Below, piece by piece: positions 12,887-52,566 of a stretch of 52,566 bases of DNA. Position numbers and translations under genes: made by a program. The DNA lies in IMG/VR virus record IMGVR_UViG_3300048588_000115, positions 1 to 52,566 of that record; one strand, 5' to 3'. Numbering within the stretch: the first letter of the stretch is position 1; every line of letters starts with the position of its first letter. This DNA is from a virus. Under the pieces are notes generated by a model. The model worked only from the letters and a program-made list of their open reading frames with translations, was not told where the DNA came from and made no database searches.

Positions 12887-12887
12887 A
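12282..12887 (+). CDS. HNH homing endonuclease
   Basis: GTG start 5 nt after GGAGG. HHCDHNPRNNSFNNLVLLRMGDHTRLH is an HNH motif. The N-terminal HTH-like segment is LTQAQIGAVFGLSQKQVSKYIK. Confidence 0.8.
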   Translation: MDIKYLIENTELTQAQIGAVFGLSQKQVSKYIKRHYSSEFRKHRKVKCYRNSKLGDKNPMFNMLKEDHHNYIGVVSDNKGYWMMLKPEWYTGRKRSKHVFEHHIVVCENLGITEIPKGFSVHHCDHNPRNNSFNNLVLLRMGDHTRLHGALKGATTISKESTLKWVEAHGTPWSRDDIVSSAWGHAAAYSGQEVTTPAEDK

Positions 12888-20808: not shown

Positions 20809-21189
20809 ATAACTCCAAATGTTAGGTCGTATACTAGACTTCACCAAATCAAGATGTATGAATCTACTATTACCTTGTTGGCTCACACCAACACCTGTGA
20901 AGCCCATTGTAATGGCTAAACCAACTAGACGATGTGCATCGGCACCACGAACACTAATATCAGCCGCAAGCCCTTGAGCATGCGGCCCAATACCAGTCTT
21001 TGTACGCTCCTCAGGATGGTTTCGATTACGGAAACCAGACGTAATCTTCATAGGTTTGTTGTACACACTACGTAGCTGTTGTAACTTATCCATAAAGGCT
21101 TCCAGCATAAAGTTCTCACCAGAGAATTTACAATCAAACTCCGCCTTAGTAAAGTTTTTGTACTTTGACCAGTCTTTTACAACACTCAT
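20806..21189 (-). CDS. endolysin, zinc peptidase M15 family (VanY/M15A-like)
   Basis: SGFRNRNHPEE, GPHAQGLAADI and IHLD fit an H/D/H metal-binding pattern. It is the last gene of the late arm. Confidence 0.65.
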   Translation of the reverse strand: MSVVKDWSKYKNFTKAEFDCKFSGENFMLEAFMDKLQQLRSVYNKPMKITSGFRNRNHPEERTKTGIGPHAQGLAADISVRGADAHRLVGLAITMGFTGVGVSQQGNSRFIHLDLVKSSIRPNIWSY

Positions 21190-24100: not shown

Positions 24101-25790
24101 CACCAGACCGTGCATACAATTTATTCTTAGGAGTCTCATATTTATTTTCGTACCAGAAGCCATCAATATCAAATTGATCTTTAAGCATTTGTGCAAAGCG
24201 TGTGTTATCAAAAGCATCACTACCCGGTGACTTACGAGCCCATTCCTGCATGATGTCTTGAACCTCATACATGCTATACTTACCATTCGTTGCACGTGCA
24301 ACATCTAATGCAAAAGTCTGATTGTTTGCAAGAATGTATGGTGCAAATGAACCATAGTCTTTCGACAGTGTAGGATAATTACCCTTACGAATAACAATAG
24401 GATACACAGCAGAACCTACTTCGGCACCTTGCATTGCAGCAGACGCAATATTAAAATCTAAGTTACCAATACGATAATCGATTTTATTACGTTTACGTAG
24501 TGCAGATTTTAAAGTTGCAGCCGACGCATAACCCGCATGTAGACCTTCCATACCAACTGCACGTGGTTGATCATTGAACGCCTCACGAGTCCCATGTAAT
24601 AGAATTGTTGGGGAACCATCTGTATTGCTTTCATAACGGCTTGCCGGGAATCGCTCGCGCACCCATGGCTGATCAGTTAGCCGTGAAAGCCAACGGTTTA
24701 GTCCACGGAATCCTTCTTTAAATACTTCGGGATCAAGTGCACCACGTTGTGATTTACTTAGTCCTTTAATTGGTTCCGGCGAGAAAGATGGTGTGTCCAT
24801 ATCCGCAGCCGCAGCCATTGCTGACTGTGCAATAGGATCGTCACCTTCAAATTGCTTTTGAATTTGTTGTCGTGTTTCCGTTAAGTTGCCAGGAACTTCG
24901 TCATTAAACAAAGCACGGCTAATCTCATAGCTACGATTATCCATCCCATCCCGTGCCAGATCAGGAGCATCTGTAACCATTTTATCAACAGCTTCCGGTA
25001 ATGTGCGCTCAGCTCCTTGGGCTGGTAGATACTCTTCACTAAACAAATCACGTTGTAGCGGATGTGTCGCAGCTTGGACATCCATTGAGCGCTCGGCACT
25101 AATAGGCATTCCATTTTCGTCAGTAACCCAATGTCCCGCATTATTGCTATGGTCAATACCGTATTGTGGGGCATTAGATGGAAGTAGCTCGGACTGTGTT
25201 GGCGGTACATAATCTTGTGACACTGAATCAGGTTGTGTTTTAGCTTCCTTTACAATCGCCTCGATATTACTCATAGGTGGATTATACTTATTAGCCGCCT
25301 TATCAATTGCTTTATTAATCGCACGAACAGGCTTAACCACACCAAGATGTAGTGGTAGAAAGTTTAGTGCAACTTCAGTTGGAAGCTCACCATAGATGGG
25401 ATCAAGGCCAAGTGCTTCAGCGCCTTTACCAGCATATTCTACAGGCTTACGCATAATCTCACCAGAAGCCTCTACAGCGCGTTTTCCAGGGTCAGTAGTA
25501 CCTTTGTATGTTCCCATGCCGAAGTTCTCCTCCTGGACACGTTTAGAGGCTTCTGCGGCCTTATCTAAACCCTGTCCAGAAGCAAGTGTTCCAAGACCAT
25601 ATAAACCACCAGCGATTTGTGATGGCAACGCAGACATCATAGAAAGTGCTGCTTCAGGTATACCCATATAGGTTGGAACCTTACGCTTCTGCACTTTCTC
25701 ATGATCGGATAACTTAACATCATTAAGCTCAAAAAGATCGCGCGGACCTTCTTGAGAAATGTTAGCTTGTTCAAATAGATCAATAGGCAT
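21186..25790 (-). CDS. large internal virion / DNA-ejection protein (1534 aa)
   Basis: Its size and its position after other internal-virion-like genes. It has hydrophobic segments, e.g. MAQMYMGWFNWMFTASQLAQPV. No enzymatic motif recognised. Confidence 0.5.
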   Translation of the reverse strand: MPIDLFEQANISQEGPRDLFELNDVKLSDHEKVQKRKVPTYMGIPEAALSMMSALPSQIAGGLYGLGTLASGQGLDKAAEASKRVQEENFGMGTYKGTTDPGKRAVEASGEIMRKPVEYAGKGAEALGLDPIYGELPTEVALNFLPLHLGVVKPVRAINKAIDKAANKYNPPMSNIEAIVKEAKTQPDSVSQDYVPPTQSELLPSNAPQYGIDHSNNAGHWVTDENGMPISAERSMDVQAATHPLQRDLFSEEYLPAQGAERTLPEAVDKMVTDAPDLARDGMDNRSYEISRALFNDEVPGNLTETRQQIQKQFEGDDPIAQSAMAAAADMDTPSFSPEPIKGLSKSQRGALDPEVFKEGFRGLNRWLSRLTDQPWVRERFPASRYESNTDGSPTILLHGTREAFNDQPRAVGMEGLHAGYASAATLKSALRKRNKIDYRIGNLDFNIASAAMQGAEVGSAVYPIVIRKGNYPTLSKDYGSFAPYILANNQTFALDVARATNGKYSMYEVQDIMQEWARKSPGSDAFDNTRFAQMLKDQFDIDGFWYENKYETPKNKLYARSGEHQTPQRARTLAANQAYTKSFVTWDDNKIRSLYDEPVRATMSGGIGRSQAGALRVKDIEEGIKNLRNRFGTPKDSIETPVTPSMLAEKQDKVKKVKATSDILGTKMPEWTDPTTFEEAVSLIKNEKDIKSNPYSRGVAPGNNFMAAYHNNSLLKYARHLFNKARGDAAKFSKDYITAEGGLSPLITNMDATERVKIAELLTMMDKHQVDFTPEIGQQIGLSKNGVAFMEQLKKTSDAEWDWISQIRGEQGVKSAPKRKGYTASIWSGDYHSLVLDKNGDPIGFISASSPGEFALAVEYYKKSNPDAKFSAEKWQDARRSISGGNRKAIRYSDLSSMIKLLSNADGDFAKLQNKVQLDAVRAATELFGHDVHNMRKKGITGNLGNKPWLSPEKNARDRLDAIVRYFEEAAEHHALQKPAEELRLLTADESTQHMPNAKKYLDDYYRNVTGSYIHDGGRVMNAIFNASSAVVEGVSSRIPGVRNYVGPGNAIKLSNTVKNKMAQMYMGWFNWMFTASQLAQPVQTGVPMMTMLAQRVGLPPHAATKAMANSVPQFFKLSMNNMFKQNGVKFQFPVDAELQQVFQWARDRGILDFTELERAYEGHKTTVGRAYDHVAEWSMQMGENITRPPMFLAVVDMLKQVEPDLNKVLPVAENITNQIMADYHQWERPLMYSGLGVLAPHAGGLTTFKHNYAGTHVLLAKEAGKGNSIPLMLGALQMLMFAGITGTVFYDSIDYLYQQLREEVTDERRTIAQDFMKDVPEYMKTGVVSSLLGLNMQGKFSAADMVPDSFMKGAFPHLSGAYDIAESAVTAATNPNENSFANLAVDATPSGWKQATRMAVKRDEQGNLLNKQGQVDVPRTEQEWKKAATTGLVPLDEARKRNELYQNRQNERQRIDNLTELSKQWSDLIINKGTPEQQQELLTKYEKLGGDPTHLLKKIPQIHMEAAKTSKERAQGIPKSPQGVRRYEGYQQ

Positions 25791-27997: not shown

Positions 27998-28744
27998 TTA
28001 ATTTTCTTGAACAGCATACAGCGTCACCGTACCAGTTCCAACAATAGTAACGCCACCAGAATCTGTCGCAATTTCAGCAGTAATAACACCTGTGGCTTCA
28101 CCTGAAGATGTGCTAATAGATAGTGATCTAGCCGAGTTTAATTGTAACCATGAACCAAATGTACCAGAGATTGTTGCCCCGGCTTCACTTACTTTTGTAA
28201 ATCTAATCCAATGTGTGTCACCAATAGAAGCAGTTGTTGGATTATACCAATTCCCATTTCCAATATAGCTCCCACCATTAACTCGGCGATCTTTAGTACC
28301 ATCATTATTATAGCGTACTTCAGCGGATGCTGTACCAGCCCCTAAAAATAGGGCAGAAGCACCACTAGATACATTATATGTATCCGGTGATAGGCTTTCC
28401 GATGATTGCTCTTGTGCTGCTACAGCTAGTGCTTGTGCTAAATCCGCCGCAGTCTGCGCAGTTTCTGCGGCAGTCTGTGCTGTTTCCGCCGCAGTCTGTG
28501 CTGTTTCTGCGGCAGTCGACGCAGTTTCTGCGACAGTCTGTGCTGTTTCCGCCGCAGTCTGTGCTAAATCTGCTGCGTCTTGCGCATCTTGTGCCGCAGT
28601 GGCAGCACTAGCAGCAACTGTATTTACTTCTAGTAATAACTCGTTTAAATAATCAACTACAACAGTGATTTGATTATACCAATCGATCCAGACATAACTA
28701 TTTGGATCGGCTCCGATTGGTGGTGATGGAATTAATTGTGCCAT
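27998..28744 (-). CDS. tail fibre / needle-like protein with heptad repeats
   Basis: AETAQTA heptads (coiled-coil-like) followed by a beta-rich C-terminal domain. Confidence 0.5.
   Translation of the reverse strand: MAQLIPSPPIGADPNSYVWIDWYNQITVVVDYLNELLLEVNTVAASAATAAQDAQDAADLAQTAAETAQTVAETASTAAETAQTAAETAQTAAETAQTAADLAQALAVAAQEQSSESLSPDTYNVSSGASALFLGAGTASAEVRYNNDGTKDRRVNGGSYIGNGNWYNPTTASIGDTHWIRFTKVSEAGATISGTFGSWLQLNSARSLSISTSSGEATGVITAEIATDSGGVTIVGTGTVTLYAVQEN
28440..28570 (-). repeat. about six 21-nt tandem coding repeats (AETAQTA heptads)
   Basis: gcagtctgtgctgtttccgcc-type units are visible by eye, in frame within 27998..28744. Confidence 0.8.
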
Positions 28745-32771: not shown

Positions 32772-33110
32772 TTATAATTGATGGTTATTTCTTAACACAG
32801 AATATGGAACACTAACGTTTCCGGCTTGTGCACATCCTGCTGCGGCAAGTCCGGCATAACCGCTTTTAGTATCTAAAAAACAAATTTCTACAAAGGTGTC
32901 TTGTGGTTCATGCCGAATAAATGGAACTTGTTTTGGATCAGATTGGACGCGCAAGTATTTTTGTGGATGGTCAGCTTCCCAATCATTTTGGCAAACAATA
33001 AGACCATCCCATCTTTTTCTTACTTCATCAGATTTATAACGAACACCGCAGACATCACAGATAATATTCCATGAGCCGTGTTTGAAGTAATTATTACTTG
33101 CGTAACTCAT
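32772..33110 (-). CDS. hypothetical Cys-rich (zinc-ribbon-like) protein
   Basis: CDVCGVRY...GLIVCQNDWE. Confidence 0.5.
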   Translation of the reverse strand: MSYASNNYFKHGSWNIICDVCGVRYKSDEVRKRWDGLIVCQNDWEADHPQKYLRVQSDPKQVPFIRHEPQDTFVEICFLDTKSGYAGLAAAGCAQAGNVSVPYSVLRNNHQL

Positions 33111-33342
33111 TTAGCTGTGTAGTCCAATTAATTTCCATCTTATCAAGGCGTGTCCATAGTTCGTCTTTGAATTCACGGAAGTCTTCCTTTTTAAAGTAAG
33201 TATCTTTTACTTTATCCAGTTCGGTTTTATGTTCTTTAACTTGCTCTTTAAGGTCGCTATATGTTTGCTTCATAAACCATATTACTCCACCAAGTAAAAG
33301 ATTAATTACTACACCACCGATTGTCACTAATGAGGCATCCAT
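33094..33342 (-). CDS. membrane-anchored coiled-coil protein (holin- or spanin-like?)
   Basis: N-terminal TM segment VTIGGVVINLLLGGVIWF, then a charged helical region. Confidence 0.45.
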   Translation of the reverse strand: MDASLVTIGGVVINLLLGGVIWFMKQTYSDLKEQVKEHKTELDKVKDTYFKKEDFREFKDELWTRLDKMEINWTTQLNELRK

Positions 33343-34538
33343 TATATACTAATTCCAATTTGTAGACTAATTGTGTTACCATTATAATTTATTGTAGCAG
33401 GTTCTCCACTCCAACGCAATGTGGCATTACGCCCACTTAATGTGTATATTCCACGTTCCGCTGTTAATGCATAACTACCCGGAACACTATGAACAAATGT
33501 TACATCTTGCCCCGTTAGTGTGTATGTGCCGGTAAGAGCAATACGACCTAAGCTATAATATGCTTGTTGTCCACTAATACTATATGAACCACTATCGGCT
33601 GTGAGTGTGGAAACACCAGATGTGGTCGTGAACTGCGCCGACGTAACGATGTTGGAATCGTTCGCTGCCGCGTCCGTGTGGATCAGGTGCGCGTAGTAGC
33701 CGGTGCTCGCTGTCAGGCCGGTGGCGTTGAGCGTCTTGGCGCCCGTGCTGCTGACGGCCACAGAATCAGCCCACACGGCGCCCGTGCCGGCCTTCAGGTC
33801 CGTCGCGCTCGGCGGCGTGGCCGAGGTGCTGACGAAGGCGTACAGCGTGCCGTTGCCTTCGTCCGTCGTCGCTCCGACCGTCGCCGTCGTGCTGCCGGTG
33901 GCTGTGCCGGTGGGGCTGCTCAGGACGGGGGCGGTGGTGTCGCCGCCGCCAAGCGTCTCGGCTAGGAAATTGTCGTAGTGATATCCAGTGGTGTTGGTCG
34001 ACGCGGCGTTGTCCCGCAAGCCAGCCTTGCCAGCGGCGGTGATGGCTGAATCGGTGGCGCTGATCGCGGCCGACCCCTCGCCGAGCTTGTATAGCTCGAT
34101 GGCGCTGCCGTTGACTCGCAATTCCACAGCGTAACTGGTGCTCGTCGAGACGGTCTGTGCAACGTTCGAGCCCAATTGGGTATAGGTGCCCGCGACTCGC
34201 TTGTAGAGCTGCCAGTTAGCGCTGCTTCCAGACGAGAACGCAAGCCTGGCTTCGTAGTAAGTCAGCGCGCTTGTGTCCATGCGGGCGCACACCCCGGGGG
34301 CGTTTCCGCTGACGCCAGCGCCTGCCACGTAGATGTCTGCCTTGACAGAGTAGTCAGCGCTCGGTGGCGTCTCTGCCCGGTAGATCACGCAGTTGGTGCC
34401 GTTGCCGCGTGCGCGCTCGTCATTGGTGATGCGGAACCCGTTGCCGGCGCCCGGATGATTTACCCAGTTCGCGTCATGGTCCGGCAGGGTGTCTCCATCG
34501 GAACTTCCAGCGAATGCATCGGCGGCAATGACTGTCAT
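33342..34538 (-). CDS. chimeric structural / receptor-binding-like protein (GC-rich 5' part, AT-rich 3' part)
   Basis: 398-codon ORF. It has a T/S/A-rich Ig/Fn3-like middle and C-terminal repeats SGSYSISGQ / TGTYTLTGQ / GIYTLSGR. The composition step is near 33.62-33.66 kb. Confidence 0.5.
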   Translation of the reverse strand: MTVIAADAFAGSSDGDTLPDHDANWVNHPGAGNGFRITNDERARGNGTNCVIYRAETPPSADYSVKADIYVAGAGVSGNAPGVCARMDTSALTYYEARLAFSSGSSANWQLYKRVAGTYTQLGSNVAQTVSTSTSYAVELRVNGSAIELYKLGEGSAAISATDSAITAAGKAGLRDNAASTNTTGYHYDNFLAETLGGGDTTAPVLSSPTGTATGSTTATVGATTDEGNGTLYAFVSTSATPPSATDLKAGTGAVWADSVAVSSTGAKTLNATGLTASTGYYAHLIHTDAAANDSNIVTSAQFTTTSGVSTLTADSGSYSISGQQAYYSLGRIALTGTYTLTGQDVTFVHSVPGSYALTAERGIYTLSGRNATLRWSGEPATINYNGNTISLQIGISI

Positions 34539-35785
34539 TTTGTTCCCCGGATCGCTGTGGAGTACGACTCATACGACGAGTACACGCCAGCCCACCACAG
34601 GGCGCGCGTGCCACCGCTTACGCCACCATCAACGCCAATGGGCCGACAGTTGCGCATGCTTGACGCGCCGCCGCTGGTGACGTCGCGCAGTTTCGACCAC
34701 GACGATCCGCCGTCAGCCGTTGACCATTCGCTGAGTTCCCACGCACCGCCGGCCTGTTGGATGCTGGCGAACGCTTTGGCCGGATCGCCTCGATCCAGAG
34801 CCCCGCCGCCGGAGTAATAGGACTCCGATGAGTACAACCTCCCACCCATCGCGCACACTTCCGACGTTGACCACGAGCCGCTGACACACTTTGCGTAGCG
34901 CAGACGGTGGTCTGTCGTGGCGTTTGGAAATGTCGAATACAGCGCGTGGATCACGCCGTCCTTCACGAGCAGATCCCATACCCACGAGCGGTTCGCGCCT
35001 CCGGTGTGCACGAGCGTCGCATCTGCCGGCGTGATTGGACCGCTTCCAATGAGCGTGCCGTCGCTCTTGTAGAACAGCTCTGCGCCCGAGCCGTCAAGTT
35101 GCATGTAGACGTGGTAGACCGATGAATTCCCCTGGTTGGGATGCATATCGGTGAAGAACAGGTCGATCCTGTTCACGCCGTTGCCAACGCTCTTGACGTA
35201 AGGCCGCGTGCTGGCGTTGTCCAGCCAGGTGCGCTCCGCGTCCCACGTCCCGGCCGTCACGTCATACGCCCGAACGTTGATCGGGTTCGTCCCAACGCCT
35301 CCCGCGCCACTGCGGTAATGCAGGTACACCTTGTCGGTCTGGCTCAAGTAATATGGATTGCTGTACGTCGCAGGCGTCGTCACCGTCAGCGCCGCCGTAG
35401 AGCCCCACGCGCTGATGTCTTCTGCGTTCGTGCTGATGCGGTAGCGAGTGCCGCCCGTGTCGTTGTGCAGCGAGTAGGCTGAGAAAATGCGCCCGTCAGG
35501 CAAGAAGCAGAATCCTCCGTTGTTGTGGTCGTTCTGCTGCGTCAGTGCGTGAATTGTGGCTTCTGCTGTATCCCCGCTGGACTCGACACGCCTTGCCATG
35601 CACACGTTGCCATTGGCCTTGACGTACTGCGCGTATGTTGCGCCGTTGCGGTAGATCGCGCGCCGGTCTGAGAACCACGTCCAGATGCCGTCTGGCGCCA
35701 CCTCGTATTGAGCGGGTGCAGGCGCGTCCCTCCCCGCCCACAGGTCATCAGAATTCCTTACAAATAATGTATAATTATTCGCCAT
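34535..35785 (-). CDS. BNR/Asp-box beta-propeller-like protein (sialidase/lyase-like, depolymerase candidate)
   Basis: Asp-box TADGGSSW and repeated W/Y-rich blades. GC-rich body after an AT-rich first ~13 codons (MANNYTLFVRNSD). ATGA coupling downstream. Confidence 0.45.
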   Translation of the reverse strand: MANNYTLFVRNSDDLWAGRDAPAPAQYEVAPDGIWTWFSDRRAIYRNGATYAQYVKANGNVCMARRVESSGDTAEATIHALTQQNDHNNGGFCFLPDGRIFSAYSLHNDTGGTRYRISTNAEDISAWGSTAALTVTTPATYSNPYYLSQTDKVYLHYRSGAGGVGTNPINVRAYDVTAGTWDAERTWLDNASTRPYVKSVGNGVNRIDLFFTDMHPNQGNSSVYHVYMQLDGSGAELFYKSDGTLIGSGPITPADATLVHTGGANRSWVWDLLVKDGVIHALYSTFPNATTDHRLRYAKCVSGSWSTSEVCAMGGRLYSSESYYSGGGALDRGDPAKAFASIQQAGGAWELSEWSTADGGSSWSKLRDVTSGGASSMRNCRPIGVDGGVSGGTRALWWAGVYSSYESYSTAIRGTK

Positions 35786-36207
35786 TATGCTAGTGTGAAA
35801 ATACCGTTACTTGCATCAAAGTCAACAGAGAAAGATTCCCCATTGGCAAGTGTTAATGAACTAGCATAGTCCCAGAAAGCGATTAGTGGGGATGTGCTAG
35901 CGGTACCAGTATCCTTATATAAAACTGCATAACGGAATGGACCAACAGCACCAGATGCGTTCCATGTGACATCTGTGCCAACTACTTTTGCGGTACCAGA
36001 TGATGTGCTAACAGTAATTGTAGTTGCTGCACCGCCCGCAGTATAGCCATTACCTGCGGATATTTCCGTAATATCGTCAAAGAAGTCATCAGTTGCAGCA
36101 GTGGGGGCGGTATTGGTGAGTGCTACTTTAAATGTATCCGCATCCCAATCGATGCCACTGATGAGTTGTTTTTCTGTGAATGCTTGAAATTTAGTATATG
36201 TTGCCAT
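35785..36207 (-). CDS. hypothetical virion-associated protein
   Basis: 140-codon ORF with TAATG coupling. Confidence 0.5.
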   Translation of the reverse strand: MATYTKFQAFTEKQLISGIDWDADTFKVALTNTAPTAATDDFFDDITEISAGNGYTAGGAATTITVSTSSGTAKVVGTDVTWNASGAVGPFRYAVLYKDTGTASTSPLIAFWDYASSLTLANGESFSVDFDASNGIFTLA

Positions 36208-42328: not shown

Positions 42329-43769
42329 CTTGGTAGATTTCTTCCTCTTCTTCAGCCTTTGTAGGCGCTTCAATTAATGAGTCCAGCATTAAGCCTAAAT
42401 AAGCAAATGCATCAACTTGGTCATCCTTAGTTCCACGAGGAAACTTACAAAGTTCATCCTCAAATATCGGATACCAGTCAGAACTTTTGTCAAACTTTAC
42501 AGCATGTGCTCTTACACGAGCTTGTATAGACTTTGCACGTGCAATTTTATCTTTTCCACCATGCTTTAATGGCATTAAATTCAGATAAGTGCCAGTTCGC
42601 ATCATTTCTTCACGCAAGAATGGGCCAATTGCCTTTGAAACCTGCATTTCTTCGATGCCAACTAATTCTGGTGAGTAAATTCGCTGCAAACTAAGTAGTG
42701 TGTCAACAATTTCTCGACCATCTAAGCGATCACGAATCACATTTTTGGTGTGAATAATCTTATTTTCGTCAACACCCGCAATTAAGAACACAGAATAATC
42801 AGCAGTTTCTTTTTCTGAGATAGCTAAGTCAGCAGTAATATAGTAATTTAGCTTAATGCGCTTATCTTCAGTAGTTTCTGAAATAAAATCACCACGCTTA
42901 AAGTAGGCAACTGACTCATCAATCGGGCGATTGCGATATTCCTGTGAATAAACGTCAGCTAAACCACGATCAATATAGTCTTGTCGTTCTGCAATAAACC
43001 ACTCTTTCGTATATCGTGTCGGCCATAGGATGCTGGTAAAGTCATCATTATGTGCATCATACTTGAATGCTTGCCAACTAGCTCGTTTATTACGGCTATA
43101 TATCTTTAAATCAGTTACAACAGTTTGTTTATCCCACTCTGATGGCATTAAATTGTTAAGTAGACTGTCTTCATGCAGAATTGTACCAACAATCCGAATT
43201 ACACCACTTTGTGATAATGACGGTACCAGAGCACCATAAAACCACCGCTTAAACTTTGAACGTCGTTCTGAGTTTAGAACAATTTCATCATTTTCTAAAT
43301 CGTCACCAACAATAAGATCAGGTCTCTTGTTATTCCATTTTAAGCCACGAAGCTTTTGTTCAGAGCCTTTAGCAGTTAAACGAAATTGATAACCATCTTC
43401 ACATGTGACGATTACGTCATCTTCTCTATCTTTTGCAAACTCTTTAATTTTAAAGAGTGTATTAATCCGTTCGTTATCCGCTAGTTCTTTGATGATATCA
43501 CCAAGAAACTGTGTTGCCTGTGTAATAGTATCTGAAACAATCAGAACATATTGACGATTACGAAACAGAACAGCAGCGAGTACGTATGCTAGTGTTACCG
43601 CCGTACTTTTAGCGTGACGACGCGGTGCAGCAATAGCTACTTTAGAGTGCTTAGAGCTACAAAGATCCCACCACTCATAGTGGCAATCAGGGGATTCGAC
43701 AGCTTCGTCATAATTCTTTTGTAATAAGCTACTACTAAATCCCGCAATAATATCAGCGGTTAATTCCAT
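42270..43769 (-). CDS. terL: terminase large subunit
   Basis: Walker A-like AAPRRHAKST, Walker B LIVGDDLEND, and a C-terminal nuclease-like region. Confidence 0.8.
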   Translation of the reverse strand: MELTADIIAGFSSSLLQKNYDEAVESPDCHYEWWDLCSSKHSKVAIAAPRRHAKSTAVTLAYVLAAVLFRNRQYVLIVSDTITQATQFLGDIIKELADNERINTLFKIKEFAKDREDDVIVTCEDGYQFRLTAKGSEQKLRGLKWNNKRPDLIVGDDLENDEIVLNSERRSKFKRWFYGALVPSLSQSGVIRIVGTILHEDSLLNNLMPSEWDKQTVVTDLKIYSRNKRASWQAFKYDAHNDDFTSILWPTRYTKEWFIAERQDYIDRGLADVYSQEYRNRPIDESVAYFKRGDFISETTEDKRIKLNYYITADLAISEKETADYSVFLIAGVDENKIIHTKNVIRDRLDGREIVDTLLSLQRIYSPELVGIEEMQVSKAIGPFLREEMMRTGTYLNLMPLKHGGKDKIARAKSIQARVRAHAVKFDKSSDWYPIFEDELCKFPRGTKDDQVDAFAYLGLMLDSLIEAPTKAEEEEEIYQDELNRANLGNDGRSVATGY

Positions 43770-45343
43770 TATTCAGTTAAATAAGTTGCTTTACCGTATG
43801 CACCAATGTGATTCTTCGACTGGAATCCACGGATATCACGGCGATATCCGAGGTCGGCACCATCAGTCAACAGCGGAGAGCCTGCGAGCGGCACGCCGGC
43901 TGCGTTGACGAGCGGGTCGTCTGTTGAGCTGCTTCCATGCAGCGTGTGGCCGCTGGCCGCCGCCATGTCGTAGAAGCGGTTGTTGCTCTCGCCTGTCCAC
44001 GTCACGCCGCTGGACACGGCTGCTCCTGGCCCGGTGAACAGGTTGGCCTCAACGATGTTGTCTGTGGCTGCGTCAGCCTGTAGGCGCACTCCTGCCACGG
44101 TGCAGCCCGAGAAGGTGTTGCGCACGGCATGCAAGCTCTGGTTCGGCGACCCTCCGGTGTCGTTATGAGACTGCGCTCCGATGTAGATGCCAACGGCTAC
44201 GTCGTGACCATAATTGGCTTCCACCACGCAGTCTGTGCTGTCAAGCACCATCGCAGCACAGCCACTGTTTGTGGCGCCTGTTTTTCCGGGGATGTTCCTG
44301 AACTTGTTGGCCTCGACAATTGTTCTTTGGTTTCCGTGGTCAAGCAGTACGCCGTTGCCGTCGATGGTTTCGGTGTATATGCCGTCCATTTCGTTGTGGT
44401 GGACCCAATACTCGCCAAAGAATAAGTTGAAACCGCCATACTGCCCATAGACATCGCGCAAGATGTTGTGAGCAATCTCATTCCGGCCGAATCCTGGCGT
44501 CGTGCTTGGCGCAAACCCGCGCACCACATTGCCACCAAGCAGCGAACTGCCGACAGCGAACCCGCAGTTCCGCTCGATGTTGTGCCTGATCTTCAGGCCC
44601 GTGTTCAGGCCGTAGGTATTGAAGGCGCTGTTGACCTCGATAGGGATGCCGGCGCACCCCTCGAACACGTTGTGTTCGATGACGAGGTCGGCAATCGTGC
44701 GCGCAGTGACGCCAGTGTCTGACCGAAGATGGATGATTGAACGCGGAGATTCGCACTGATGAAACCTGTTGCCCGTGATCGTTGCGCGCGTTAGCGTGAC
44801 TGTTGCACTTGCGGCCGTCACAAACTGGCTGATGAACCCCTGCGAGCCGCACTCCCCGTAGAAGTCACAGCCATCAATGACCAGATCTGTAAGCGTGTTT
44901 CCGTTTGCAACCGGCAGGGCGACAACTTGTGTGCTTCCATCTCCAGTAATGGAACAGCGTATCACCCGCGTGTAGTGTGCGCCGTTACCGATGTTCAGCG
45001 CCCGCCCGCCGTTTCCGATCAGAGCCATGCCGATAATGTCGGTGTACTGCCTGCTGCCGTTGTTCAGGTAGTAGCCGCCTGATGGAGTTGACGTAATCGT
45101 TCCCGGATCTGGGTCGAAGCTTCCATCAATGACGCACCGGGTGGCGCCGCTGTTACCTCCATGTGCCCCAATGGCGGCATTCGCTGAAAGCGTATGTGTT
45201 CCGCAGACCTTGAGGGTGTCGCCACCCACGACGCCAGCGCCGCCCCAGACGATCTCTGTCCATCCGCCCCACGCCGTCGCGTAGCTAGTGCCGTCGCGCG
45301 TCCCGGCATGTGATGTATCAGGTCTGACGTACCAAGTCCCCAT
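43769..45343 (-). CDS. right-handed parallel beta-helix protein (pectate-lyase-like, depolymerase candidate), GC-rich
   Basis: N-terminus WYVRPDTSHAGTRDGTSYATAW and repeated N-x-x-G / H-N-I-type beta-helix rungs (HNIERN, HNILRD, HHNEMDG, EANKFRN). Hand count of 44521-44580 gives 62% GC. TAATG coupling to terL. Confidence 0.6.
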   Translation of the reverse strand: MGTWYVRPDTSHAGTRDGTSYATAWGGWTEIVWGGAGVVGGDTLKVCGTHTLSANAAIGAHGGNSGATRCVIDGSFDPDPGTITSTPSGGYYLNNGSRQYTDIIGMALIGNGGRALNIGNGAHYTRVIRCSITGDGSTQVVALPVANGNTLTDLVIDGCDFYGECGSQGFISQFVTAASATVTLTRATITGNRFHQCESPRSIIHLRSDTGVTARTIADLVIEHNVFEGCAGIPIEVNSAFNTYGLNTGLKIRHNIERNCGFAVGSSLLGGNVVRGFAPSTTPGFGRNEIAHNILRDVYGQYGGFNLFFGEYWVHHNEMDGIYTETIDGNGVLLDHGNQRTIVEANKFRNIPGKTGATNSGCAAMVLDSTDCVVEANYGHDVAVGIYIGAQSHNDTGGSPNQSLHAVRNTFSGCTVAGVRLQADAATDNIVEANLFTGPGAAVSSGVTWTGESNNRFYDMAAASGHTLHGSSSTDDPLVNAAGVPLAGSPLLTDGADLGYRRDIRGFQSKNHIGAYGKATYLTE

Positions 45344-45344
45344 G

Positions 45345-45464
45345 TCAGGCCGCGCCGATGATTGGCGTCACGGGCCAATGGCCGGCGAACGTGTTGTAAG
45401 CGCTACCCAAGGACGTGCCGTCTCCATTGCTAGATGCCTGCGGATTGACGTACTGAAGTGCCAT
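45345..45464 (-). CDS. 39-codon GC-rich ORF resembling a beta-helix protein N-terminus (possible remnant)
   Basis: MALQYVNPQASSNGDGTSLGSAYNTF... parallels the WYVRPD...RDGTSYATAW of the next gene. TAATG coupling upstream and TGAcATG downstream. Confidence 0.4.
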   Translation of the reverse strand: MALQYVNPQASSNGDGTSLGSAYNTFAGHWPVTPIIGAA

Positions 45465-45955
45465 TATTCAACCATTACATCAATAGTAGCAGTGCCAGAA
45501 ATAACTACGTGACAACCAGTTGAATTAATACGACGGCCACCAGTACCTACACCAGCAGTAGCATGATCACCATCCCAGTAATAAGTACCAGTCGTGATAT
45601 TAGCCACTGTCATGATGGCTGTGCCAGTGGCACTAGTTGCATCATAGATCGTAACATCAGCAGTACCACCAGATTCAGAGCGAACTACGAATCCACGGAA
45701 TTCACAGGCACCACTAACAGCGGTGTCAGTTGCAGTTAACGTAACAACGGCGACAGCTTCAGATAAAGCATATACGCCACCATCACCATCAAGCAAATAA
45801 CCACTACTATTGATGGTACCAAGGACATTCCAAGATGTACCATCAGAATGGTATAAAGCCCCAGTATCTAACGCTTGGGCCAGTGCACCCTTGTTTGCAG
45901 TAGCATCAGGGAAATCAGCGAATGTGGCTTTAACGTATTTACCGGAGCGAATCAT
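45464..45955 (-). CDS. hypothetical beta-rich protein
   Basis: 163-codon ORF. Confidence 0.5.
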   Translation of the reverse strand: MIRSGKYVKATFADFPDATANKGALAQALDTGALYHSDGTSWNVLGTINSSGYLLDGDGGVYALSEAVAVVTLTATDTAVSGACEFRGFVVRSESGGTADVTIYDATSATGTAIMTVANITTGTYYWDGDHATAGVGTGGRRINSTGCHVVISGTATIDVMVE

Positions 45956-45958
45956 AAT

Positions 45959-46117
45959 TTACTTCTTTGCGTCTTCAGACTTGGCTGCTTGTTTAGCAGC
46001 TTCATCCATTGCAACACCTACAGCGGCGGCAGTGTTTGCATCTTTATTTGAAGCACCAGCAGCTTTAGCCTGCGTTCGTAAATTCAAATACATTAGGAAT
46101 GTGTTCCAAAAACTCAT
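45959..46117 (-). CDS. hypothetical small protein (52 aa)
   Basis: Hand-translated: MSFWNTFLMYLNLRTQAKAAGASNKDANTAAAVGVAMDEAAKQAAKSEDAKK. AAGGAAA RBS. Confidence 0.45.
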   Translation of the reverse strand: MSFWNTFLMYLNLRTQAKAAGASNKDANTAAAVGVAMDEAAKQAAKSEDAKK

Positions 46118-46443: not shown

Positions 46444-46965
46444 TTAGATTTCCTTAGATACTACGTCAATAACTTCAGTAGATTTCTTACGTGTAAGCTT
46501 TGCAAATTCCATTGCTAAATTCTTTAAGATTTCGTTTGCTGAGACTTCATCGCCACTACGAGTAGCCTGAAGCTTTTCGATTTCAGCTGAACGTGTCAGC
46601 AAGTTATTCATTGCGGAGTTTGCATCACGTAAACCCACAGGCTTACGCATAAGCTCGCCGGTCTTGTTATTGAGAATGTATTCGCCGTTGCGAAGCCGGT
46701 CATCCATGATGTCTAAAGACGTAGCCGCAATGGTATTGATTTTGGATTGAAGCTCTGCTCTGGCTTCCTGCTTGACTTCTTCCATGACAGCAGGCCACCA
46801 CTCAGCTTTCTTCCATTGAAGGATAGTGCCGTATGGGATATTTGTCAGCTCGCTTGCGAGGCGTATATTGCCTAGGCGAACGATATGCCTTGCTACTTCA
46901 TAGCGGGCTTCTTGTGGATGTGGCTCGTTATGGCGAACCTTAAGCTGTGTGTCTTCTGTAGGCAT
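46444..46965 (-). CDS. terminase small subunit-like / HTH DNA-binding protein
   Basis: It is the first gene of the late arm. HTH-like IRLASELTNIPYGTILQWKK. AGGAG RBS. Confidence 0.45.
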   Translation of the reverse strand: MPTEDTQLKVRHNEPHPQEARYEVARHIVRLGNIRLASELTNIPYGTILQWKKAEWWPAVMEEVKQEARAELQSKINTIAATSLDIMDDRLRNGEYILNNKTGELMRKPVGLRDANSAMNNLLTRSAEIEKLQATRSGDEVSANEILKNLAMEFAKLTRKKSTEVIDVVSKEI

Positions 46966-46982
46966 TGCGACTCCTTTCCTAT

Positions 46983-47011
46983 ATTATACCACAGAAAAGG
47001 CGATTTGTCAA
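46983..47011 (-). promoter_or_regulatory. consensus sigma70 promoter for the minus (structural) arm
   Basis: The minus strand reads TTGACA-17 nt-TGgTATAAT, followed by AGGAG and ATG 46965. Confidence 0.75.
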
Positions 47012-47070
47012 TAGCAAAAAGCATATTTATTAAAAATAAATAGAAATATGTAAAAAAGTAAGAAAAAGAC

Positions 47071-47098
47071 TTGACTTTTTTTCAAAAGACGATATAAT
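47071..47098 (+). promoter_or_regulatory. near-consensus sigma70 promoter for the plus arm
   Basis: TTGACT at 47071-47076, a 16-nt spacer, and TATAAT at 47093-47098. Confidence 0.65.
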
Positions 47099-47099
47099 T

Positions 47100-47220
47100 A
47101 AGTAATATATATATATATAAGTAATAAAAGAATATAAAAGTTATTTACTAATAAGTTTTATGTTCTTTTATATATAAGTTATTTATTTAATTAATTATAT
47201 ATAAGTTGATAAAAAGATAA
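47100..47220. repeat. extremely AT-rich tract with repeated TATATAAGT words (possible DNA-unwinding element)
   Basis: tatatataagtaat, tatatataagttatt and tatatataagttgat are read directly. No ORF. Confidence 0.5.
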
Positions 47221-48391
47221 AAAGACTAGGGACGCGTAGCGTCTGCGAGCATCAGCGAGCCAAGTTACATTTAAATAACCCCTAGGAAGGCTTTAAAGGT
47301 ACCTAGAAGGCGTTAAAACAGGTGAAGGTATACCAGGGTAGCCAGAAGACATCTTAAGGGGCTAGAATAGCCTCTAATCGAATAGCCCTATTATTTCCCA
47401 CCCCATAAAAATGGTATAAGAGGTGTTTCACACCAATTCAACCAGAGAAGTTTTCCCCCCACCCCCTCTTTGTGACAGGGAAGACTACTCAGTTCCATAC
47501 ACTACTGTATGGTCTATTCATCATATGATACTACGTAGGGGAACGTTACCATGTAGGGTATGATTAGGGTTAACACCTATACCCCCTCCCACTATATGGA
47601 AATGCCCGGGAAGCCCCCTAGCTGGGCGATACGGCCGTTTTCGCTGAATCTGAGGCCGACCCCTTCAAAAATATAGTTATGCGCCTGTAGGGTATCCCTG
47701 ATTAATACCCGGTATGGTATGCCGTCACCCAGGTAAACACATACCCATACCCCGTACCGTATATACCCATACCCGTTATCACCTTACTTGACAAATGGTC
47801 TTTATTCTGGTATTCGCGCAGCGCAGGCAGGCCGGCGGCCGATACCTGACTAATACCGTCGGATACCCTTGTCAGGGTCGATCATTCGTGTTACCCTACG
47901 TGCGCGCGTGCGCAGATCCAGCCAGCAGCCTAGGAATGAGAATCATTCGCATCCACCCAGGCCGGGAGGGTTATTAACCCTACTGTTGACATGGGTATTT
48001 TTAACAGGCATAATGCAGACATGCGCTGAGTAATCGGTGCTAGCGAGCTAGGTCGGCGTGCTGACCGAGGCGGCTATCTTTAACAATCGATAATTGCAGA
48101 CCACGCGGCGAAGGCCAATGAACGCAGCCGCGCGAAACGTCTAGGGCGAATGCAAAAGCGCACAGCATGTGAATGCTCGCTTGCGGATTCCGTCTCCCGA
48201 TGGCCCGTCACTGCAACGTAGTGGACTGGCAATGCCAGACGTTCGCCGAATGGAAAGGGCGACTATAAAAATTACCACTTCGATAATAGATGGGGATATG
48301 GTGTAATGGCACACACCTAACGGATTCAACCGGCTTGAATCCCCATATCCTTGTACATTAACGCCGTTAACCTAACTGCTAGTGTGCAAGG
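47221..48391. other. ORF-free, motif-rich segment (iteron-like repeats and many hairpins), function unknown
   Basis: No credible ORF in about 1.17 kb. CTAG(G)AAGGCnTTAAA occurs twice (47282, 47304). TGTAGGGTAT occurs twice (47551, 47686). ATACCC/GGGTAT words are clustered at 47690-47870, and ATCATTCG occurs twice (47881, 47942). Confidence 0.6.
47986..48014 (+). promoter_or_regulatory. sigma70-type promoter TTGACA-17 nt-CATAAT with an adjacent palindrome
   Basis: TTGACA at 47986-47991 and CATAAT at 48009-48014. The inverted repeat GGGTTA-T-TAACCC at 47968-47980 lies just upstream of the -35. Confidence 0.5.
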
Positions 48392-49033
48392 ATGATGGAG
48401 ATACAAATGCAACATGCAATGGAAACCATCCGCACCAGCGGCTCGCTGCCCATGAAGAAGGCACCGATCCGCCTGGAATCGCGGGATGACCGGCTTCAGG
48501 GTGAACTGCTGTCGGCCGAAGTGCTCGCCGCTGCCAAGGGTCACGACAACATCTGGTTGGCCTTCGCGTGGCGTGTCATCGACATGACCCCGGAAGCGCG
48601 GGATGTGTTCGTGAACCGCATCAAGGCGGAGAAGTCGGCCATGACCAAGGGTCAGACCGAGGCTGGCGTCGACGAGAAGACGGCCAAGTCCCGCACCGCC
48701 ACGTTCGGAGTGCAGGTGTCCCGCTTGACCGGCATCGCCAAGGCGTGGAACGCCGGGGGCAGTGTCGAGGGTCTGTGTGACTACATGAATCAGGGCTTCA
48801 CCGACAAGAGCAAGCACGCCAAGCCCGAGGACATGCGGGCACATGCATCCTTCATCGGGATCTACGAGTACGCCAAGATCCTGAACGGGTCCGGCCTTGG
48901 TCGCAAGCCTGATGCACTCGTGGTCAAGCTCGCCAAGTTCATCAAGGCGAACACCAGCACCGACGCCGACGCCAATGACACGGCGCTGATTGCCAAGCTC
49001 ACCGAACTCTACAAGGAGTTCAACAAGGACTGA
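48392..49033 (+). CDS. hypothetical protein, GC-rich (alternative start 48407 after GGAG)
   Basis: 213-codon ORF with a balanced K/E/A composition. The overlapping minus-strand 306-codon ORF is H/R/G/L/V-biased, typical of antisense to a GC-rich gene. Confidence 0.6.
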   Translation: MMEIQMQHAMETIRTSGSLPMKKAPIRLESRDDRLQGELLSAEVLAAAKGHDNIWLAFAWRVIDMTPEARDVFVNRIKAEKSAMTKGQTEAGVDEKTAKSRTATFGVQVSRLTGIAKAWNAGGSVEGLCDYMNQGFTDKSKHAKPEDMRAHASFIGIYEYAKILNGSGLGRKPDALVVKLAKFIKANTSTDADANDTALIAKLTELYKEFNKD

Positions 49034-50616: not shown

Positions 50617-50774
50617 TGGACTACTTGGTGTATCTAGGTGTCTATCCTTTCGATGAGATCATCGGTAAAGTGTCTGCGGACACACACGAAGAAGGGCTTG
50701 TAATTGCCATCAACCAATACAAACAAATTGGTGTTCCGTCACCTGTAATTGAGCCGATTAGCGCAACGCATTAA
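50616..50774 (+). CDS. hypothetical small protein (52 aa)
   Basis: TAATG coupling. Hand-translated: MDYLVYLGVYPFDEIIGKVSADTHEEGLVIAINQYKQIGVPSPVIEPISATH. Confidence 0.45.
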   Translation: MDYLVYLGVYPFDEIIGKVSADTHEEGLVIAINQYKQIGVPSPVIEPISATH

Positions 50775-50787
50775 CAGGAGTAAAGCA

Positions 50788-51387
50788 ATGGCAAAGAAAG
50801 AATTTGGCTGGCATTTCGTAGCTGATAAGCTGCGTGATGGCTCGCCTATCCCTGCTGATGGTGTACCGCTTGTGTATAGCGGTGCTATTCACATCTGCAC
50901 GTCAGGCTTGCACTTCTCAAGCAAGCCACACCAAGCGTTGCGGTATGCACCAGGCAATACGCTGTGCTACGTGCAGGTGGAAGATGTGCGAGAGCGTCAG
51001 GCAGACAAAGGTGTGTGCAGCAAACGTACAATTATTAAGCGGATTAATGCCAAGCAGTTGATGCGACGCTTCGCATGTGATCAAGCGTTGTCTGTTGCAC
51101 ATCTGCGTGAGCCCAATGCCGTTGTGGATAAGTATCTGCAAACGGCTGACCCTGCTTTGCGGGATGCGGCGCGTAGCGCGGCATGGAATGCGGCGCGGTA
51201 TGTGGCGTCGAGTGCGGCGTGGGATGCGGCGTCGAGTGCGGCGTGGGATGCGGCGTCGAGTGCGGCGTGGGATGCGGCGTCGAGTGCGGCGTGGGATGCG
51301 GCGTGGGATGCGGCGCGGTATGCGGTGTGGAATGCGGCATGGGAAGAATTCGATAGGCGTGTGTATGCTGCTTTTGGCTTGAATTGA
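50788..51387 (+). CDS. Ala/Trp 4-residue-repeat protein, paralog A
   Basis: ATG 50788 follows the AGGAG cassette. The N-domain is [61 protein letters not shown]. The C-terminus has AAWDAASS repeats. The antisense PHSTPH ORF was rejected. Confidence 0.75.
51165..51345 (+). repeat. coding tandem repeats (12-nt period; four 24-nt units encoding AAWDAASS)
   Basis: agtgcggcgtgggatgcggcgtcg is repeated four times around 51211-51300. Repeat number and order differ from paralog B. Confidence 0.85.
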
Positions 51388-52191: not shown

Positions 52192-52566
52192 ATGGCAAAG
52201 AAAGAGTTTGGCTGGCATTTCGTAGCTGATAAGCTGCGTGATGGCTCGCCTATCCCTGCTGATGGTGTACCGCTTGTGTATAGCGGTGCTATTCGCATCT
52301 GTCGATCTGGCTTGCATTTCTCAAGCAAGCCTCATCAAGCGTTGCAATATGCACCAGGCAATACACTATGCTACGTGCAGGTGGCAGATGTACGTGAGCG
52401 GGGGGCAGACAAAGGTGTGTGCAGCAAACGTACAATTATTAAGCGGATTAATGCCAAGCAGTTGATGCGACGCTTCGCATGTGATCAAGCGTTGTCTGTT
52501 GCACATCTGCGTGAGCCCAATGCCGTTGTGGATAAGTATCTGCAAACGGCTGACCCTGCTTTGCGG
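52192..52566 (+). CDS. Ala/Trp 4-residue-repeat protein, paralog B, 5' part (continues at nt 128 across the junction)
   Basis: ATGGCAAAGAAAGAGTTTGGCTGGCATTTC... runs open to the window end. It is roughly 90% identical by eye to 50788..51162. Confidence 0.7.
   Translation, partial: MAKKEFGWHFVADKLRDGSPIPADGVPLVYSGAIRICRSGLHFSSKPHQALQYAPGNTLCYVQVADVRERGADKGVCSKRTIIKRINAKQLMRRFACDQALSVAHLREPNAVVDKYLQTADPALR

Follow-up and report, generated by a model that had tools for sequence, protein, structure and literature searches.

A conserved, non-coding gap between the divergent operons of a 52.4-kb phage genome: a candidate modular control region with a boxA-like early leader

The gap between the early and late operons

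We analysed a non-coding segment (positions 47221-48391) of the virus record IMGVR_UViG_3300048588_000115 from IMG/VR, whose 52,566 nucleotides are together referred to as the window. Bases 1-127 recur without any difference at 52440-52566, a 127-nt identity which shows that the assembly closes into a circle and represents a phage genome of ~52.4 kb. Genes running rightwards from ~48.4 kb, through the contig junction, to ~21 kb are early and replication genes. Based on Pfam and PHROGs matches, they include a primase, a DnaB-like helicase, an exonuclease, a class II ribonucleotide reductase, an HNH-split family-A DNA polymerase and a phiEco32-type amidoligase cluster. The leftward genes, from 46965 to 21186, include the large terminase and portal genes and presumably form the packaging/structural module. 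The segment lies in the divergent gap separating these two operons. On its left, the 5' side of the first leftward gene, which encodes a 173-aa protein, ends at 46965. On its right, the first early gene most likely starts at ATG 48407 and not at 48392, as judged from its sequence, since a homologue aligns from that methionine and GGAG is found 6 nt upstream. The non-coding stretch would therefore extend to 48406, making the segment the larger part of a gap of ~1.4 kb (46966-48406).

A first-pass annotation, made from the letters alone, had described the segment as free of open reading frames (ORFs) and dense in repeats and hairpins, and had left three candidates side by side: an iteron-type origin or partition site, operator arrays, or a large structured RNA. 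Our analysis indicates that each of these fits another part of the segment and that none fits the whole. We propose, with a probability of about 0.6, that the region is a modular control region between the early and late operons, composed of separate elements that act mostly as DNA. RNA action would be limited to the last ~385 nt, which behave as a 5' leader and not as a free-standing giant RNA.

Related gaps were found through a neighbouring protein. A blastn search of the region against 50,697 phage records gave no match, and neither did an exact DNA-pattern scan of viral and metagenome collections for an invariant 22-mer or a search for relatives in viral contigs with the 213-aa first early protein as anchor. 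Scanning viral contigs for the boxA 14-mer returned at least 120 matches, which were estimated to be mostly chance and were uninformative. Homologues of the 173-aa neighbour protein exist, and their contigs, together with a profile-guided scan of metagenome and viral collections, yielded ~85 loci (numbered L001 and onwards). The cultured relative, Alcaligenes phage vB_Af_QDWS535 (OK172329), was reached via proteins only (large terminase 54% identical) and shows the same control-region layout. The phage group is uncharacterised, with one cultured member, on Alcaligenes, plus dozens of metagenomic relatives.

Wherever the sequence of a relative extends far enough, a gene-poor gap of 1.2-1.6 kb occupies the corresponding position. 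The gap of the window is 66-67% identical in nucleotides to those of L002 and L003 over 788-881 nt, while identity to the homologues is 55-57% for the 173-aa neighbour and 33% for the first early gene. Portions of the segment are found ahead of this neighbour gene in >40 related contigs and in QDWS535. The non-coding DNA is therefore under stronger constraint than the first early gene. Iterated nhmmer searches gave 87 matches (many loci on both strands) to an element corresponding to window positions 47230-47470, which is shared by ~50 distinct related contigs, constant in side and orientation, and which we refer to as the universal or left element. Multiple alignment, profile searches and promoter scans showed that the order of elements is fixed across the family: back-to-back sigma-70 promoters and an AT-rich tract come first, then the left element with the C-rich motif at its right end, palindromes, a variable array, between one and three early promoters at a distance of 330-790 nt from the C-rich motif on its right, and a boxA leader.

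The absence of credible ORFs was confirmed, the longest in the segment having 60, 62, 54 and 50 codons. Its small ORFs have no match in PHROGs, and the independent annotations of relatives likewise place no gene in the homologous gaps. The GC content of the segment is indeed above that of the backbone (50.0% compared with 43.7% for the whole window), and every motif and hairpin reported earlier is present where it had been placed. Their statistical weight differs. ATACC/GGTAT occurs 18 times in the segment compared with 4.6 times expected from dinucleotide shuffles, and ATACCC 10 times compared with 1.4 (0/300 shuffles reached either count). The run of ATACCC/GGGTAT words is thus strongly over-represented and also specific to the region, with 10 of the 19 copies in the whole 52.5-kb window lying within 47556-47993. 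Two longer repeats, TGTAGGGTAT and ATCATTCG, each present twice, proved to be at chance level (words of k = 7-8, equalled in 17-85% of shuffles). The pair CTAG(G)AAGGCnTT(T)AAA is not significant in the window alone but belongs to helically phased units kept across 22 relatives. As for hairpins, the right third alone surpasses shuffled sequence in folding (48020-48410, z = -3.0, 0/100 shuffles), whereas the left part (47222-47480, z = -0.18 on the plus and +0.17 on the minus strand) and the middle (47481-47985, z = -1.35) do not. Protein-family scans (Pfam and/or PHROGs) covered 45 plus-strand ORFs, that is, the early and replication genes, and, from the minus strand, only seven ORFs located at either end of the late operon. 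No ParA/ParB-like protein was found among these ORFs, and the suggestion of a partition site was dropped for lack of partner genes in this set.

The early promoter and its leader RNA

The right part of the region contains the following features.

47968-47999, plus strand: inverted words GGGTTA/TAACCC (47968-47980) and GGGTAT (47993) flanking the -35 box of the early promoter, a candidate operator
47986-48014, plus strand: early promoter TTGACA-17-CATAAT, 11/12 consensus matches
48021-48406, plus strand: structured untranslated leader of the early operon, ~385 nt, z = -3.0
48053-48064, plus strand: boxB-like hairpin TCGGC-GT-GCTGA, preceding boxA
48069-48089, plus strand: GGCGGC and boxA-like TATCTTTAACAAT, boxA from 48076
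48104-48132, plus strand: covarying helix P2, CGCGGC..GCCGCG
48209-48223, plus strand: leader motif CACTGCAACGTAGTG
48226-48238, plus strand: hairpin P3, CTGGCA-a-TGCCAG, before GACGTT; its position recurs, with differing stems
48300-48317 and 48322-48342, plus strand: leader hairpins
48349-48391, plus strand: terminal hairpin CCTTGTACA..TGTGCAAGG with loop palindrome TTAACGCCGTTAA, ending 5 nt before the Shine-Dalgarno sequence
48397, plus strand: Shine-Dalgarno sequence GGAG
48407, plus strand: ATG of the first early gene

The early promoter is the best-conserved 43-mer of the region (84% identity to L002, L003 and L007). An arrangement of the type CCC..TTGACA..GGG was found at 14 promoter copies from 11 loci, and an operator role for the words flanking the -35 box is plausible on the basis of their placement. 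The earlier suggestion of operator arrays is thus reasonable for the ATACCC and GGGTTA words, those at the early promoter included.

Downstream of this promoter, the UGCUCUUUAACAA-like sequence at 48076, TATCTTTAACAAT, matches CTCTTTAACAA at 10/11 positions. Compared with the longer UGCUCUUUAACAAU, 11/14 positions match, all three further mismatches falling in the first three bases. In the relatives, ~33 boxA copies with at most one mismatch were found in ~20 relatives, on the plus strand and 290-820 nt right of the C-rich motif, many being perfect copies of GCTCTTTAACAATT. Their form is (G)CTCTTTAACAATT at the same place, preceded by a hairpin and often present twice with tandem promoters. 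This boxB-like hairpin lies 2-12 nt before boxA in most relatives. In E. coli, the rrnG boxA-spacer sequence is ugcucuuuaacaauuua, a boxB hairpin precedes boxA in rrn leaders and boxC is not required for rrn antitermination (PMC2724277).

A covariance model, R1, comprising the hairpin, boxA and P2, was employed for the leader because MAFFT misaligned its variable insertions and RNAalifold consequently returned only 5 pairs. R1 gave 17 matches, all on the leader strand and downstream of early promoters. In the resulting alignment, which is fitted to the model and thus favours structure, 76% of cells are paired compared with 51% when shuffled, and the covariation score is 0.171 compared with 0.062 (0/500), slid controls reaching at most 0.056. 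Nine of the ten pairs change on both sides. Helix 1, the boxB-like hairpin, is 71% paired, with changes on both sides at 4/5 pairs. RNAalifold applied to a sequence-only profile alignment likewise recovered P2 (energy -2.6 compared with -0.06 for column shuffles, 0/100), with a weaker value of -1.5 on the other strand. The P2 stems vary widely between relatives (CGCGGC/GCCGCG, CACCCC/GGGGTG, CTATCAC/GTGATAG, GACACTC/GAGTGTC and others). Two leader helices, the boxB-like hairpin and P2, hence covary. Of the leader hairpins listed in the first-pass annotation, CGCGGC..GCCGCG shows compensatory changes, whereas stems at the position of CTGGCA-a-TGCCAG are singly no better than shuffles; five-bp stems are common in shuffled sequence, so the evidence for P3 is its conserved position. 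The terminal hairpin is maintained in L010 through compensatory changes (CAACACA/TGTGTTG) and keeps a conserved loop with TTAACGCCGTTAA.

We consider it likely that this RNA is an rrn-type boxA antitermination leader. On untranslated rRNA, boxA-bound NusB/NusE together with NusA, NusG and SuhB counteract Rho (PMC4807359). By analogy, host RNA polymerase would start at the early promoter and the nascent RNA would form the boxB-like hairpin and expose boxA, which would recruit host NusB/NusE with NusA/NusG. The Nus complex would then keep the polymerase Rho-resistant across the untranslated leader and into the early genes. The terminal hairpin, adjacent to the ribosome-binding site, may act as a gate for translating the first gene, and a regulator binding the GGGTTA/TAACCC words at the -35 box could shut the promoter.

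The left and middle modules

The features left of the early promoter are listed below; "unstranded" marks those to which no strand is assigned.

46983-47011, minus strand: consensus sigma-70 promoter TTGACA-17-TATAAT with TG, 12/12 matches, outside the segment, driving the 173-aa gene and the packaging/structural operon
47071-47098, plus strand: near-consensus sigma-70 promoter TTGACT-16-TATAAT, 11/12 matches, firing rightwards into the AT tract and the segment
47099-47220, unstranded: 122-bp AT tract of (TA)n and A/T runs, 9.8% GC, a candidate DNA-unwinding element
47231-47243, unstranded: hairpin GACGC-GTA-GCGTC, bordering the conserved element on its left, terminator-like on the minus strand (T-rich run after it)
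47270-47388, unstranded: helically phased repeat array, conserved in >30 relatives
47270-47291 and 47292-47312, unstranded: ~21-22-bp units TTTAAA-N6-CCTAG-(G)AAGGC, with a degenerate third from 47313
47329-47343, unstranded: central TATACCAGGGTAGCC of the array, with repeat units around it
47353-47388, unstranded: further TTAAG..CTAG..TAAT unit of the array
47389-47466, plus strand: ATAGCCC..A/T-rich..AAAATGGTATAAGAGGTG, then a hairpin, then the C-rich motif; the family's most conserved block
47422-47434, plus strand: hairpin GGTGT-TTC-ACACC, not supported by covariation
47451-47466, plus strand: near-invariant, family-wide homopyrimidine (C-rich) motif TTTTCCCCCCACCCCC (TTTTCCCCCnnCCCCC)
47495-47627, unstranded: palindrome block, kept in the closer clade L002, L003, L004 and L007
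47495-47512, unstranded: palindrome CCATACA-CTAC-TGTATGG
47518-47540, unstranded: palindrome TCATCATATGATACTACGTAGGG (ATCATATGAT)
47581-47592, unstranded: second C-rich motif
47613-47627, unstranded: CCTAG unit GCCCCCTAGCTGGGC
47686-47870, unstranded: array of ATACC(C)/GGGTAT words, 12 copies in 185 nt, region-specific, a count reached in 0/300 shuffles
47898-47913, unstranded: alternating purine-pyrimidine GC tract ACGTGCGCGCGTGCGC, with longer tracts at the same place in relatives

The promoter arrangement at the left edge is widely shared. An equivalent of the minus-strand promoter is present in most relatives, and the plus-strand promoter is found 320-580 nt left of the C-rich motif in >15 relatives, including QDWS535. 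Directly after it, ~16/23 relatives are 80-100% AT over 80-130 bp, as is QDWS535. The edge hairpin has counterparts with other stems, such as GATGC-TTC-GCATC in L003 and GCAGAC-TGTT-GTCTGC in L015. In L001 (~480-330), L004 (~2640-2510), L007, L051 and L067 (minus strand), ~150 nt of ordinary GC content replaces the AT tract (ATATGCAAATGCTGGTGGAGCGGAACTCAACGCGTGGCTCCAG...); this replacement looks structured, and Rfam gave no match to it in L004 and L067.

Across the family, units of the type TTTAAA-N5-6-CCTAG-AAGGC recur every 21-22 bp and flank a central GCTACCCnnGTAGC-type palindrome on both sides, the two repeats noted earlier at 47282 and 47304 belonging to this array. In the left elements of 22 relatives, CTAG is enriched 3.9-fold and TTTAAA 9.3-fold, and 43/56 word pairs are spaced 10-11, 21-22 or 31-32 nt apart compared with 7.9 expected (0/2000 random placements). 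The array profile matches both strands. Measured against an iteron array of at least three direct 17-22-bp repeats, the window contains two clear units and degenerate ones, built of short, partly palindromic words. Bendable words phased on one helix face suggest, from their spacing, a protein that binds repeatedly or wraps the DNA.

In contrast to the leader, the left element showed no conserved fold. RNAalifold found zero consensus pairs on either strand, both with 22 MAFFT-aligned and with 23-31 profile-aligned sequences, and at GGTGT-TTC-ACACC 48.9% of cells are paired compared with 47.0% in shuffles. In the relatives, leader and left element cannot be told apart by thermodynamic z-scores. 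Since its words are conserved at helical spacing and readable on both strands, which is a property of DNA, the left element appears to act as DNA and not as folded RNA. A minus-strand promoter right of the C-rich motif, as would be needed for an R-loop of G-rich RNA, was also considered, but none is conserved.

The middle of the region varies between lineages. At the site of the first palindrome, relatives carry TTTATCA-nn-TGATAAA or the Fur-box-like TGAGAAT-n-ATTCTCA instead. The alignment columns of the ATACCC array hold clusters of DnaA boxes in L004, L007, L015, L027 and L067. Perfect TTATCCACA boxes occur three times each in L004 and L007, L027 combines two perfect boxes with a one-mismatch box, and L015 has three one-mismatch boxes, all four loci sharing the spacing x, x+34, x+56. 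L067 contains two perfect boxes at the homologous place with other spacing, and L043 six boxes, two of which are perfect, about as far from the C-rich motif. At the array position, L002 and L003 have GTATCCACA. As DnaA boxes, ATACCC words or GTATCCACA occupy the same place, the site seems to be a binding platform whose partner is lineage-dependent, and the ATACCC array is, going by its word content, probably a protein-binding array. Z-DNA-prone alternating tracts are found 70-150 nt upstream of the early promoter in L002, L003, L004 and L007, reaching 27 nt in L002.

Roughly one in two long contigs from related phages has an end within the gap that precedes the 173-aa gene (L005, L012, L017, L018, L022, L051, L066, L069-L072, L075, L076, L078, L081 and L084), one group in the AT-rich tract and another 0-140 nt right of the C-rich motif. 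These ends may be physical termini or assembly breaks resulting from extreme composition. A single physical terminus was rejected because the ends are scattered.

Concerning the flanking proteins, the 173-aa protein has no significant match in PHROGs, Pfam, NCBIfam, a PDB sequence-profile search or Foldseek (best E = 1), although a weak match to Pfam HTH_28 was seen. Its AlphaFold model (predicted local distance difference test score of 70) consists of an N-terminal three-helix helix-turn-helix (HTH), a long helical hairpin and a small beta-hairpin. The first early protein (208/213 aa) has no match, PHROGs and Pfam included, and no phage RNA polymerase was found.

Several further observations were made elsewhere in the genome. 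The family-A DNA polymerase is encoded in two parts (11054-12190 and 13190-13813) with an HNH endonuclease gene (12282-12887) between them. The cluster at 1368-7159 comprises a glutamine amidotransferase, a COOH-NH2 ligase (phiEco32 type), an amidoligase, a second glutamine amidotransferase and an ATP-grasp gene, and is a peptide- or metabolite-modification module of the early region. Paralogous repeat-protein genes lie at 143-291, 50749-51387, 51178-51344 and 52192-52566 (50788-51162 and 52192-52566 being 95% identical). Their AAWDAAS.. units are encoded by a 12-nt tandem repeat, GCGGCGTGGAAT, and they match only function-unknown families in PHROGs. GC-rich islands (57-63%, genome 43.7%) at 33000-36000, 44000-46000 and 48000-49000 suggest mosaic acquisition; both the first early gene and a 524-aa ORF (43769-45343) without a PHROGs match lie in them. 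The distal end of the late operon encodes a 1534-aa protein (21186-25790, minus strand) that has no Pfam or PHROGs match, and a 21/63-nt tandem repeat, GCAGTCTGTGCTGTTTCTGCG, lies at 28434-28573 within a minus-strand late-operon ORF of unknown function.

Interpretation and comparison with known systems

The functions of the individual modules are what we infer from these observations. For the left module (47230-47470 with promoter 47071 and the AT tract), we tentatively favour a replication origin, at somewhat less than even odds. This assignment draws on the promoter firing into the 122-bp AT tract, the phased array, the DnaA boxes of relatives, the T7-like replisome and a cumulative GC-skew minimum at 47-48 kb. 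The iteron-type origin of the first-pass annotation thus gains comparative support for the left part of the segment and the flank outside it, but finds neither a DnaA box in the segment nor an initiator gene. Host polymerase would transcribe into and open the AT tract, as at the T7 primary origin, the phased ~21-22-bp repeats would bind and wrap around a putative protein, and the phage's T7-like primase and helicase would then load. The middle module would serve as a platform for a sequence-specific factor, evidently host DnaA in many relatives; in the window its words differ from DnaA boxes, and related words recur at the early promoter. More speculatively, and in our view doubtful, promoter, AT tract, phased repeats and TTTTCCCCCnnCCCCC could constitute an undescribed type of phage origin, coupled to an rRNA-mimicking leader with its own RNA domain. 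The role that a phage polymerase has at T7-type origins would here fall to host RNA polymerase, with the homopyrimidine/homopurine motif setting where a priming transcript or R-loop ends.

A number of points weigh against the modular reading. The first three bases of the window boxA (cuaUCUUUAACAAU) do not agree with the consensus of E. coli rrn (ugcUCUUUAACAAU), which makes the strength of this boxA uncertain; perfect copies occur in relatives and not in the window, and one changed base is the G whose mutation (boxA5) weakens lambda boxA (PMC2724277). The R1 statistics carry the bias of the model-fitted alignment mentioned above. The left elements of relatives fold somewhat better than shuffles (z -0.4 to -3.6), because many units are small palindromes. 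The left element is also almost certainly transcribed from promoter 47071, and it is conceivable, if unlikely, that it acts as an RNA of small local hairpins. With regard to the origin, the segment has no DnaA box at up to one mismatch, and the phased repeats it contains are degenerate and low in number. In the relatives, ~500 nt separate the DnaA-box clusters from the AT tract, a greater distance than classical origins show. The Pfam/PHROGs scans of 45 plus-strand ORFs revealed no initiator gene, the flanking proteins match no Rep/initiator family, and the GC-skew minimum is not independent evidence because it coincides with the switch in gene orientation.

Among other explanations for the left module (47230-47520), a packaging-recognition site or genome terminus (pac/cos or the edge of a direct terminal repeat) is unlikely, though far from negligible. 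The 173-aa HTH protein would then be the small terminase, forming oligomers, wrapping the phased repeats and positioning the large terminase for cleavage near the C-rich motif. The element is always found directly upstream of the first gene in the large terminase/portal operon, yet two to six genes separate the 173-aa gene from the large terminase in relatives, and four in the window. The predicted fold (HTH, long helical hairpin, beta-hairpin) is one we take to be compatible with small terminases, and phased bendable words would suit DNA wrapping; the protein nevertheless matches no terminase family or structure in PHROGs, Pfam or Foldseek. That about half of the long contigs end in the gap, five of them, with contigs of 36, 51 and 53 kb among these, at 0-60 nt to the right of the C-rich motif, would fit a terminus, but the ends spread over ~500 nt, differ even among the near-identical L013, L017 and L020, and coincide with the (TA)n tract and C homopolymers, both assembly breakers. 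DnaA boxes nearby would also be unexpected at a packaging site. Slightly less probable still is a purely transcription-controlling region, in which repeats, palindromes and ATACCC words are operators timing the divergent promoters, DnaA acts as a transcription factor in relatives and replication starts elsewhere. Such a function would be in line with the repeated words found close to all three promoters, the back-to-back consensus pair and the early one, with the GGGTTA/GGGTAT words around the early -35 box and with the operator-type palindromes, Fur-box-like in some relatives. It would however leave unexplained the invariant homopyrimidine motif and the conserved 80-130-bp, 80-100% AT tract, which comes after and not before its promoter, and 200-700 nt separate the arrays from the promoters under their supposed control. 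Some relatives have a small divergent HTH gene in the gap, while no repressor-like gene was recognised in the scanned ORFs of this phage.

The large structured RNA proposed earlier, a GOLLD/ROOL-like non-coding RNA that would span the whole segment or its left two-thirds and start from promoter 47071, is improbable. That near-consensus promoter does point into the segment, with no plus-strand intrinsic terminator before 48000, but the first ~120 transcribed nt would be (UA)n. Conservation without coding is high, tRNA genes are nearby and elements of relatives reach z = -3.6. Opposed to this, the values for the window are only -0.18 and -1.35, RNAalifold predicted not a single consensus pair on either strand with either type of alignment (22-31 sequences), and the tested hairpin GGTGT-TTC-ACACC lacks covariation. 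The conserved feature consists of words at helical spacing on both strands, a DNA property, and the middle part is swapped for DnaA boxes in relatives. Using Rfam 15, nothing credible was found at E <= 10 in 46900-48600, GOLLD, ROOL, HEARO and raiA included, and only two tRNAs reached the gathering score; at that score 12 relatives likewise gave nothing besides tRNAs. Finally, a decayed coding sequence or another genetic code, which would make the lack of ORFs an artefact, is hardly credible and was rejected. The GC content above the backbone does resemble that of the neighbouring GC-rich gene, but homologous gaps are ORF-free in independently annotated relatives, alignments abound in indels whose lengths are not divisible by three, no family matches exist for the small ORFs and the flanking genes are normal in code 11.

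Each element of the region is of a known kind. The combination, the invariant homopyrimidine motif and the extra leader domains are undescribed as far as our tools show, since Rfam, phage records and searches for papers yielded nothing specific. Being more conserved than the neighbouring genes, the region likely holds the central controls of this phage group. If the modular reading is correct, an rRNA-type boxA leader would represent a compact, protein-independent means of termination resistance for phage early transcription and would be of use in expressing long RNAs that are structured or not translated. An origin combining a promoter for host RNA polymerase with an AT tract would extend the T7 model to phages without their own polymerase, and the exchange of DnaA boxes and ATACCC words at a homologous site would illustrate how such a module changes its binding partner. 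More generally, a repeat- and hairpin-dense gap near tRNAs is not necessarily a giant RNA.

Compared with known systems, the region shares with GOLLD, ROOL and HEARO that it is long, ORF-free, phage-borne and within ~1.2 kb of tRNA genes, but it matches no covariance model, two-thirds of its length has no conserved fold and its structured part is a 5' leader. With the left end of T7-like phages, lambda cosB and SPP1 pac it has in common a stretch of ~1 kb that is ORF-free, with short repeats and strong early host-type promoters. In cosB and pac, terminase-binding repeats adjoin the small-terminase gene, whereas here the neighbouring protein is not demonstrably a terminase and the assembly is circular without a terminal repeat. 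Iteron-type theta origins (lambda ori, P1 oriR, R6K, F, pSC101) resemble it in having phased ~21-22-bp direct repeats beside an AT-rich unwinding element (here 47099-47220) and, in relatives, DnaA boxes in the same region. They differ in that the present units are only 2-3 plus 1-2, degenerate and interrupted by a central palindrome, that no adjacent Rep/O-like initiator gene was found, and that the DnaA boxes are ~500 nt from the AT tract and absent from this phage's segment.

The closest parallel for the left edge is the T7 primary origin (phi1.1A/1.1B plus an AT-rich stretch), as here too a promoter fires directly into an AT tract, which is about twice as long as the AT-rich stretch of T7. 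The phage also encodes a T7-like primase, a DnaB-family helicase and a family-A polymerase, as expected for a T7-type origin, and T7 origins require a promoter (PMC8373140). Unlike in T7, the promoter is of the host sigma-70 type, and the AT tract is followed by a conserved 240-bp repeat element and the homopyrimidine motif, neither of which T7 has. The leader, in turn, differs from lambda nut in that neither an N-like protein nor the order boxA then boxB is evident in this phage, and from rrn leaders in heading a phage early operon, in the degenerate first three bases of its boxA, and in the additional conserved P2 with its GAAGGCCAAUGAA loop, CUGCAACGU and a terminal hairpin at the ribosome-binding site. 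No boxC was identified, although no search was aimed at it. The leader nevertheless follows the plan of E. coli rrn leaders and lambda nut, with a strong sigma-70 promoter, a hairpin within ~50-100 nt and then (G)CTCTTTAACAATT, matching the rrnG sequence ugcucuuuaacaauuua. As in rrn leaders, the hairpin precedes boxA. The RNA that the leader heads is long and not translated, and it is on RNAs of this type that complexes of Nus factors oppose Rho (PMC4807359).

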